Positions 16,997 to 17,857 of a stretch of 44,355 nucleotides of DNA are shown here, in pieces. The stretch comes from Escherichia coli. Its GTDB lineage: Bacteria; Pseudomonadota; Gammaproteobacteria; Enterobacterales; Enterobacteriaceae. The notes beneath the pieces were generated by a model. The model searched no databases, was not told the DNA's origin, and was given only the letters and a program-made list of their open reading frames with translations. The stretch lies in assembly GCF_044324785.1 (NCBI RefSeq), contig NZ_CP172130.1. One strand, given 5' to 3'. Numbering within the stretch: position 1 is the stretch's first letter; each line of letters opens with the position of its first letter. The translations under genes and the position numbers were made by a program.

Positions 16997-17857
16997 ATGA
17001 GTATTCAACATTTTCGTGTCGCCCTTATTCCCTTTTTTGCGGCATTTTGCCTTCCTGTTTTTGCTCACCCAGAAACGCTGGTGAAAGTAAAAGATGCTGA
17101 AGATCAGTTGGGTGCACGAGTGGGTTACATCGAACTGGATCTCAACAGCGGTAAGATCCTTGAGAGTTTTCGCCCCGAAGAACGTTTTCCAATGATGAGC
17201 ACTTTTAAAGTTCTGCTATGTGGTGCGGTATTATCCCGTGTTGACGCCGGGCAAGAGCAACTCGGTCGCCGCATACACTATTCTCAGAATGACTTGGTTA
17301 AGTACTCACCAGTCACAGAAAAGCATCTTACGGATGGCATGACAGTAAGAGAATTATGCAGTGCTGCCATAACCATGAGTGATAACACTGCTGCCAACTT
17401 ACTTCTGACAACGATCGGAGGACCGAAGGAGCTAACCGCTTTTTTGCACAACATGGGGGATCATGTAACTCGCCTTGATCGTTGGGAACCGGAGCTGAAT
17501 GAAGCCATACCAAACGACGAGCGTGACACCACGACGCCTGCAGCAATGGCAACAACGTTGCGCAAACTATTAACTGGCGAACTACTTACTCTAGCTTCCC
17601 GGCAACAATTAATAGACTGGATGGAGGCGGATAAAGTTGCAGGACCACTTCTGCGCTCGGCCCTTCCGGCTGGCTGGTTTATTGCTGATAAATCTGGAGC
17701 CAGTGAGCGTGGGTCTCGCGGTATCATTGCAGCACTGGGGCCAGATGGTAAGCCCTCCCGTATCGTAGTTATCTACACGACGGGGAGTCAGGCAACTATG
17801 GATGAACGAAATAGACAGATCGCTGAGATAGGTGCCTCACTGATTAAGCATTGGTAA
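16997..17857 (+). CDS. blaTEM: TEM-type class A beta-lactamase with E104K, M182T and G238S relative to TEM-1 as recalled (TEM-52-like ESBL)
   Basis: 286-aa protein collinear with TEM-1 as recalled from memory; residues read as ...LVKYSP..., ...[11 protein letters not shown]..., ...KSGASERGS.... Confidence 0.85.

Follow-up and report, generated by a model that had tools for sequence, protein, structure and literature searches.

The extended-spectrum β-lactamase (ESBL) TEM-52 is defined by three substitutions relative to TEM-1, E104K, M182T and G238S (PMC5829062). Its gene variant blaTEM-52B has been described on IncX1 plasmids in three papers (PMC6747055, PMC12567533 and PMC10116946), two of which, with assignments based on MobileElementFinder, place the gene within Tn2. 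The closest described relative of the DNA studied here is pDKX1-TEM-52 (NC_019096.1; also NC_019067.1 and KU932031.1), a 38,611-bp IncX1 plasmid from Danish beef and broiler meat. The stretch that we analyzed as a whole, called the window in the following, comes from Escherichia coli (contig NZ_CP172130.1). It is a complete circular IncX1 plasmid of 44,355 bp, starting at the rep gene, and our subject is its blaTEM open reading frame (ORF) at 16997..17857.

Alignment to pDKX1-TEM-52 gave 0 mismatches over ~38.6 kb, in three collinear blocks of the window that together complete the circle. Only two differences were seen, a 5,735-bp IS26 array together with its 8-bp target site duplication (TSD), and one extra C at Sutcliffe positions 31/32. 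The window is identical to records typed as IncX1, MOBP and MPF_T by MOB-suite, which is what we took to mark a conjugative IncX1 plasmid, namely an IncX1 replicon, a MOBP relaxase and a VirB-type (MPF_T) transfer region. We are virtually certain that the ORF is an intact, natural blaTEM-52, a class A ESBL gene with the weak P3 promoter, carried by a Tn3-family transposon on the IncX1 plasmid pDKX1-TEM-52 plus an IS26 array. An identical full plasmid was found neither in PLSDB nor among 5,426 RefSeq complete E. coli genomes.

Coding sequence and allele identity

The features of the gene are as follows, the three substituted positions being read by comparison with annotated TEM-1.

16997..17857, plus strand: blaTEM-52 coding sequence (CDS), 286 codons and a TAA stop, confirmed as a real ORF by translation
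16997-17065, plus strand: signal peptide, residues 1-23; the mature enzyme begins HPETLVK, as do the PDB chains
17300, plus strand: A at Sutcliffe 512 (GAG to AAG, E104K)
17535, plus strand: C at Sutcliffe 747 (ATG to ACG, M182T)
17702, plus strand: A at Sutcliffe 914 (GGT to AGT, G238S)

As TEM-1 reference we used an annotated sequence, WP_000027057.1 (‘broad-spectrum class A beta-lactamase TEM-1’) of NZ_CP104480.1 (locus L001, 17004..17864). Over the 861-nucleotide (nt) CDS, the window differs from it at exactly three positions, all non-synonymous (17300 G to A, 17535 T to C and 17702 G to A). The protein accordingly departs from WP_000027057.1 in three residues, at precursor positions 102, 180 and 236, which correspond to Ambler 104 (E to K), 182 (M to T) and 238 (G to S). 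A first-pass annotation, made from the sequence alone, had read K, T and S at these Ambler positions in the peptides LVKYSP, DTTTPAAM and SGASERGS, and had named the combination TEM-52. All three peptides occur in the ORF, the TEM-1 residues assumed in that annotation agree with WP_000027057.1, and alignment to annotated TEM-1 and TEM-52 revealed no additional or different substitution, the outcome that would have spoken against that proposal.

Four independent lines agree on TEM-52. The identical 286-residue protein carries the NCBI name ‘extended-spectrum class A beta-lactamase TEM-52’ and is found on 442 contigs in the protein collection; the mature enzyme is identical at 263/263 residues to PDB entry 1HTZ (‘beta-lactamase mutant TEM52’); the CDS is identical at 861/861 nt to the blaTEM-52 gene (WP_015058977.1) of pDKX1-TEM-52, an AMRFinderPlus call at 100%; and E104K, M182T and G238S, with no further substitution relative to TEM-1, are those of the literature definition. 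Because the 861/861 match is to an annotated blaTEM-52, chance resemblance is irrelevant here.

Family membership was seen with the NCBIfam model NF000531.2 (blaTEM), which scored 664.9 bits against a cutoff of 625 and covered 1-286 of 286 residues, whereas the runner-up model, blaGIL, reached 515.8 bits and stayed under its cutoff of 640. The motifs of class A serine β-lactamases lie at the expected Ambler positions, with STFK at 70-73, SDN at 130-132, E166 in RWEPELN of the omega loop and KSG at 234-236. At positions that define other TEM alleles the protein is wild type (Q39, M69, R164, E240, R244 and N276).

Promoter and the polymorphism at positions 31/32

Transposons Tn2 and Tn3 typically drive blaTEM from the weak promoter P3, and the change C32T creates the strong overlapping promoters Pa/Pb (PMC6476967). 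Upstream of the window gene we found the following elements.

16819..16820, plus strand: ‘CC’ at Sutcliffe 31-32, so that the Pa/Pb site is wild type, with no C32T
16927..16955, plus strand: P3 promoter, −35 TTCAAA at 16927-16932, 17-nt spacer, −10 GACAAT at 16950-16955
16988..16995, plus strand: ribosome-binding region AGGAAGAG, which stops 1 nt short of the ATG, read directly from the sequence

The 208 nt 5′ of the CDS are identical to those of annotated TEM-1 (TEM-1b) genes. In 16815..16996, the region that the first-pass annotation had singled out for a promoter check, the promoter proved to be wild-type P3. C32 (16820) is unchanged, and the promoter is not Pa/Pb; G162 (16950) is unchanged as well, and it is not P4, which we take to be G162T, where the −10 hexamer GACAAT is altered in its first base. 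The Pa/Pb hexamers were assigned by sequence inspection. A generic sigma-70 scan of 16700..18100 gave no report of P3, which fits only 8 of 12 consensus positions, and as such a scan misses P3, the bla promoter was typed by position.

The CC at 31/32 is shared by the window and its TEM-1 IncX1 siblings, in contrast to a single C in pDKX1-TEM-52 and in the 38,611-bp IncX1 plasmids with TEM-32 or with TEM-32 plus W165C (L002, 16838-16861; L008 and L009). Since the single C is common to IncX1 plasmids with TEM-52, TEM-32 and TEM-32 plus W165C, it is not a one-off error. By inspection, the 1-bp deletion turns the hexamer at 27-32, 17 nt after TTGAAG, from TACGCC into TACGCT, a −10 hexamer that C32T makes as well. 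Judged from these hexamers, the deletion in the relatives could be a candidate promoter-up change of the Pa type, in which case the window would carry the weak-promoter version. No description of the single-C deletion as a promoter-up variant was found in a literature search that did not include the primary blaTEM promoter papers.

The extra C of the window may be ancestral, a slip-back, the product of recombination or an assembly difference. Apart from this single detail the locus holds nothing new; enzyme, haplotype, promoter, transposon, plasmid and type of array are already known. One may speculate that the window is a derivative of pDKX1-TEM-52 absent from PLSDB and the RefSeq complete E. 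coli genomes, that the 1-bp deletion of its relatives is promoter-up, and that the window itself is a weak-promoter ancestor or else a revertant or recombinant. Taken together, we regard this scenario as rather unlikely. If the deletion were indeed promoter-up, bla expression would be undergoing tuning within the plasmid lineage. For genotype-to-phenotype prediction of TEM genes, the polymorphism at 31/32 is a small point.

From the same polymorphism it might also be argued that the TEM-52 gene of the window is poorly expressed or phenotypically marginal, having P3 only while its nearest relatives carry the 1-bp deletion or C32T. The CC of the window as against the single C of the TEM-52, TEM-32 and TEM-32 plus W165C plasmids would fit with this, as would the C32T-like TACGCT that the deletion probably creates, C32T being a proven promoter-up change (PMC6476967). 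However, P3 is the promoter that Tn2 and Tn3 normally have, and TEM genes driven by it are functional (PMC6476967). Furthermore, IncI plasmids, IncC plasmids and other assemblies contain a haplotype of CC with TEM-52 identical to that of the window. A marginal gene thus seems improbable to us, and we keep to an intact blaTEM-52 with the weak, wild-type P3.

Silent-site haplotype, transposon and IS26 array

The silent sites T226, T436 and T604 (window 17014, 17224 and 17392), together with G175, place the gene on the blaTEM-1b framework, for which T226, T436 and T604 are diagnostic relative to blaTEM-1a (PMC6476967). From 208 nt upstream to the end of the CDS, the sequence is identical to CP122847.1, a plasmid of E. 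coli strain ETEC1722, whose gene has been typed as blaTEM-52B (PMC10151945). Judged via this typed strain, the window gene is most probably blaTEM-52B in ResFinder naming, which provides the nucleotide-level separation of sub-alleles suggested by the first-pass annotation.

Other blaTEM-52 genes encode the same protein on a different background. The ETEC1715 version has C226/G604, where the window has T226/T604, along with G175 and the CC promoter. Copies in an IncI1 context have C226/G604 and A175 and the C32T Pa/Pb promoter, and the literature links this version with blaTEM-52C. Among loci L012-L021, at least three silent-site/promoter haplotypes code for the TEM-52 protein. Some 4-Mb contigs hold two TEM-52 copies, in which other sequence has taken the place of the native promoter region upstream from about Sutcliffe 182. 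At the sequence level, the variety of haplotypes and the replaced promoter regions would imply multiple origins or recombination, as well as expression driven by insertion sequences (IS).

The gene is carried by a transposon with 38-bp inverted repeats (IRs).

7307-7311 and 18005-18009, no strand: 5-bp target duplication TATAC at both transposon flanks
7312..18004, no strand: Tn3-family transposon carrying bla, 38-bp IRs at 7312-7349 and 17967-18004
7345..10269, minus strand: 3′ part of tnpA, NF033527 Tn3 transposase, profile positions 50-954 only
16257..16814, plus strand: tnpR resolvase, 185 residues, 0 mismatches to pDKX1-TEM-52 (WP_001235713.1)

IRs that are complementary at 38/38 positions, TATAC on both sides, the TnpA match and the order tnpR-bla mark an element of the Tn3 family (Tn1/Tn2/Tn3 group). 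We regard it as a putative Tn2-type transposon, for one part through its gene, blaTEM-1b presumably being the Tn2-type gene, and for the other through the label used in papers on IncX1 blaTEM-52B plasmids. The 3′ end of tnpR overlaps the −35 of the latent Pa promoter. The first 89 nt of tnpA are found at 16005-16093, parted from the rest by the IS26 array; the transposase gene, split after 89 nt, is therefore inactivated. Apart from this split the transposon is intact, with IRs, TSD and tnpR present. In the backbone, ~100-150 bp beyond each transposon end, lies an imperfect 48-nt direct repeat with 79% identity (7162-7209 and 18105-18152).

The array and its contents are listed below.

10262-10269 and 16005-16012, no strand: 8-bp target duplication AAATATCG flanking the array
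10270..16004, no strand: IS26-bounded array of 5,735 bp inside the Tn3-family tnpA
10270-11089, 11585-12404 and 15185-16004, no strand: IS26, three identical direct copies of 820 bp, with ends GGCACTGTTGCAAA
11090..11584, no strand: IncN (R46-type) backbone fragment of 495 bp, 100% match to NC_003292.1 and many other records
12494..13315, minus strand: lnu(F), lincosamide nucleotidyltransferase (NF000119, 606 bits against a cutoff of 450)
13450..14238, minus strand: aadA-family aminoglycoside 3″-nucleotidyltransferase, aadA2/aadA17-like (NF012157, 504 bits against 375; annotation of the homologous module)
14387..15184, plus strand: intI1, 3′-truncated by IS26 (NF011946 positions 1-268 of 337; the module is annotated likewise in CP043286.1)

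With direct 820-bp IS26 copies, 14-bp terminal IRs and an 8-bp TSD round the whole, the array has the structure of an IS26-bounded (pseudo-compound) transposon. Its target AAATATCG is uninterrupted in pDKX1-TEM-52. The 495-bp IncN segment, an orphan between two IS26 copies, is a relic of earlier IS26 activity. In R46, the region matching this fragment is annotated ‘restriction endonuclease | hypothetical protein’. The array is of a common type.

We also considered that array and CC promoter had arrived jointly, by recombination with a plasmid like CP043286.1 (H61). This was rejected because IS26 in that plasmid lies in tnpR, with another junction, while the array of the window has a clean 8-bp TSD in otherwise identical pDKX1 sequence.

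Might the gene be no natural resistance gene at all, but a contaminant or a TEM variant that is synthetic or stems from a laboratory or a vector? The 90% cluster of the protein is full of entries named ‘beta-lactamase TEM-1 variant [synthetic construct]’, and E104K/M182T/G238S is the classic solution of directed evolution (PMC5829062). Yet its silent sites (T226/T436/T604, G175) are those of blaTEM-1b and not those of blaTEM-1a from pBR322-type vectors (PMC6476967). Moreover, the Tn3-family transposon around the gene is complete, has a 5-bp TSD and sits on a natural IncX1 conjugative plasmid identical to those of food-animal isolates, and no vector backbone (ColE1 ori, multiple cloning site) is present next to bla. 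An artificial origin can thus be given next to no credence. Equally negligible is a different TEM allele sharing some of the substitutions (e.g., TEM-15, TEM-20, TEM-3 or TEM-72), with a residue overlooked or misread. Records of TEM-15 (E104K+G238S), TEM-20 (M182T+G238S) and TEM-135 do share the nucleotide framework of the window and differ from it by 1-2 nt, and the best full-length match in the PDB was TEM-72. Yet the latter aligned with three mismatches (Q39K, K104E and E240K), full-length identity to TEM-52 (WP_015058977.1) is exact, and Q39, M69, R164, E240, R244 and N276 are wild type. Exact alignment hence ruled out TEM-15, TEM-20, TEM-72 and TEM-135.

Two points nevertheless weigh against our reading of the locus as a natural blaTEM-52B with P3. 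With P3 alone, resistance may be lower than in relatives having C32T or the 1-bp deletion. Furthermore, the label ‘52B’ is taken over from an identical gene whose strain was typed in a publication, and not from the ResFinder reference sequence itself.

Function, spread and related plasmids

Our analysis established which allele is present, that its motifs are intact, which promoter it has and how transposon, IS and plasmid are built, while expression level, hydrolytic spectrum and transfer are taken from the literature. In this frame, bla would be transcribed from the weak wild-type P3. After export and loss of the 23-residue signal peptide, the periplasmic enzyme would become acylated via Ser70, and deacylation would proceed via Glu166 and a water molecule. 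G238S would shift the 238-243 loop and widen the active site for oxyimino-cephalosporins, cefotaxime above all; a loop movement of ~2.8 Å with an active site enlarged for these substrates has been described (PMC5829062). E104K would further raise kcat/KM for cefotaxime and ceftazidime, for which gains of ~10-fold and ~15-fold, respectively, are reported on the G238S background (PMC5829062). M182T, distant from the active site, would restore the stability lost to G238S, in agreement with work in which it left specificity unchanged (PMC5829062). For cefotaxime, acylation is rate-limiting and improves along the path from TEM-1 to TEM-52 (PMC8704030). For the identical protein, published work describes an ESBL phenotype, i.e., hydrolysis of cefotaxime and ceftazidime that is inhibited by clavulanate (PMC5829062, PMC8704030), and the same would be expected here by analogy. 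As the array disrupts the transposase, bla would spread mainly by conjugation rather than by its own transposition, with the probably self-transmissible IncX1 plasmid as main vehicle.

The window holds a presumably transferable ESBL gene for third-generation cephalosporin resistance, and its conjugative IncX1 backbone has been encountered before in poultry, beef and pigs. The IS26 array physically links this gene to resistance against lincosamides and streptomycin/spectinomycin. For surveillance and typing, the locus can be recorded as blaTEM-52B, P3 promoter, IncX1. All this is clinically relevant but already known, and enzyme, transposon and plasmid biology gain nothing new from it.

Five near-identical IncX1 plasmids in our set (L001, L007, L008, L009 and L010) carry TEM-1, TEM-32, TEM-32 plus W165C or TEM-52, with transposon and insertion site unchanged. 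This suggests that bla alleles arose from one another in situ within a single IncX1 plasmid lineage. Among the looked-up contigs that encode the exact window protein, its arrangement was absent, and the contexts there were IncI1-type, IncC-type or chromosomal.

The TEM-1 IncX1 siblings CP082730.1 and OR237794.1 share backbone, transposon position and CC/P3 promoter with the window, and their bla is 3 nt away. NZ_CP104480.1, a 44,362-bp IncX1 plasmid of Salmonella from Thailand, likewise has the backbone, the transposon position and the CC/P3 promoter, and in addition the IS26-lnu(F)-aadA module. It differs in its TEM-1 gene (3 nt away), in the deletion of most of tnpA, in the inverted orientation of the module and in the presence of aac(3)-IId. 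Its right-hand IS26 abuts window position 16029, as opposed to 16005 in the window. Because the IS26 junctions differ and CP104480.1 has TEM-1, the lnu(F)-aadA insertions in the two plasmids are independent events.

At the protein level, the window enzyme does not differ from TEM-52 (WP_015058977.1; 1HTZ), with 286/286 residues the same. With pDKX1-TEM-52 the window shares the whole backbone, the transposon insertion site and the bla CDS. In contrast to this plasmid, it carries in tnpA the IS26 array with the IncN fragment, lnu(F), aadA and the truncated intI1, and it reads CC where pDKX1-TEM-52 has a single C.
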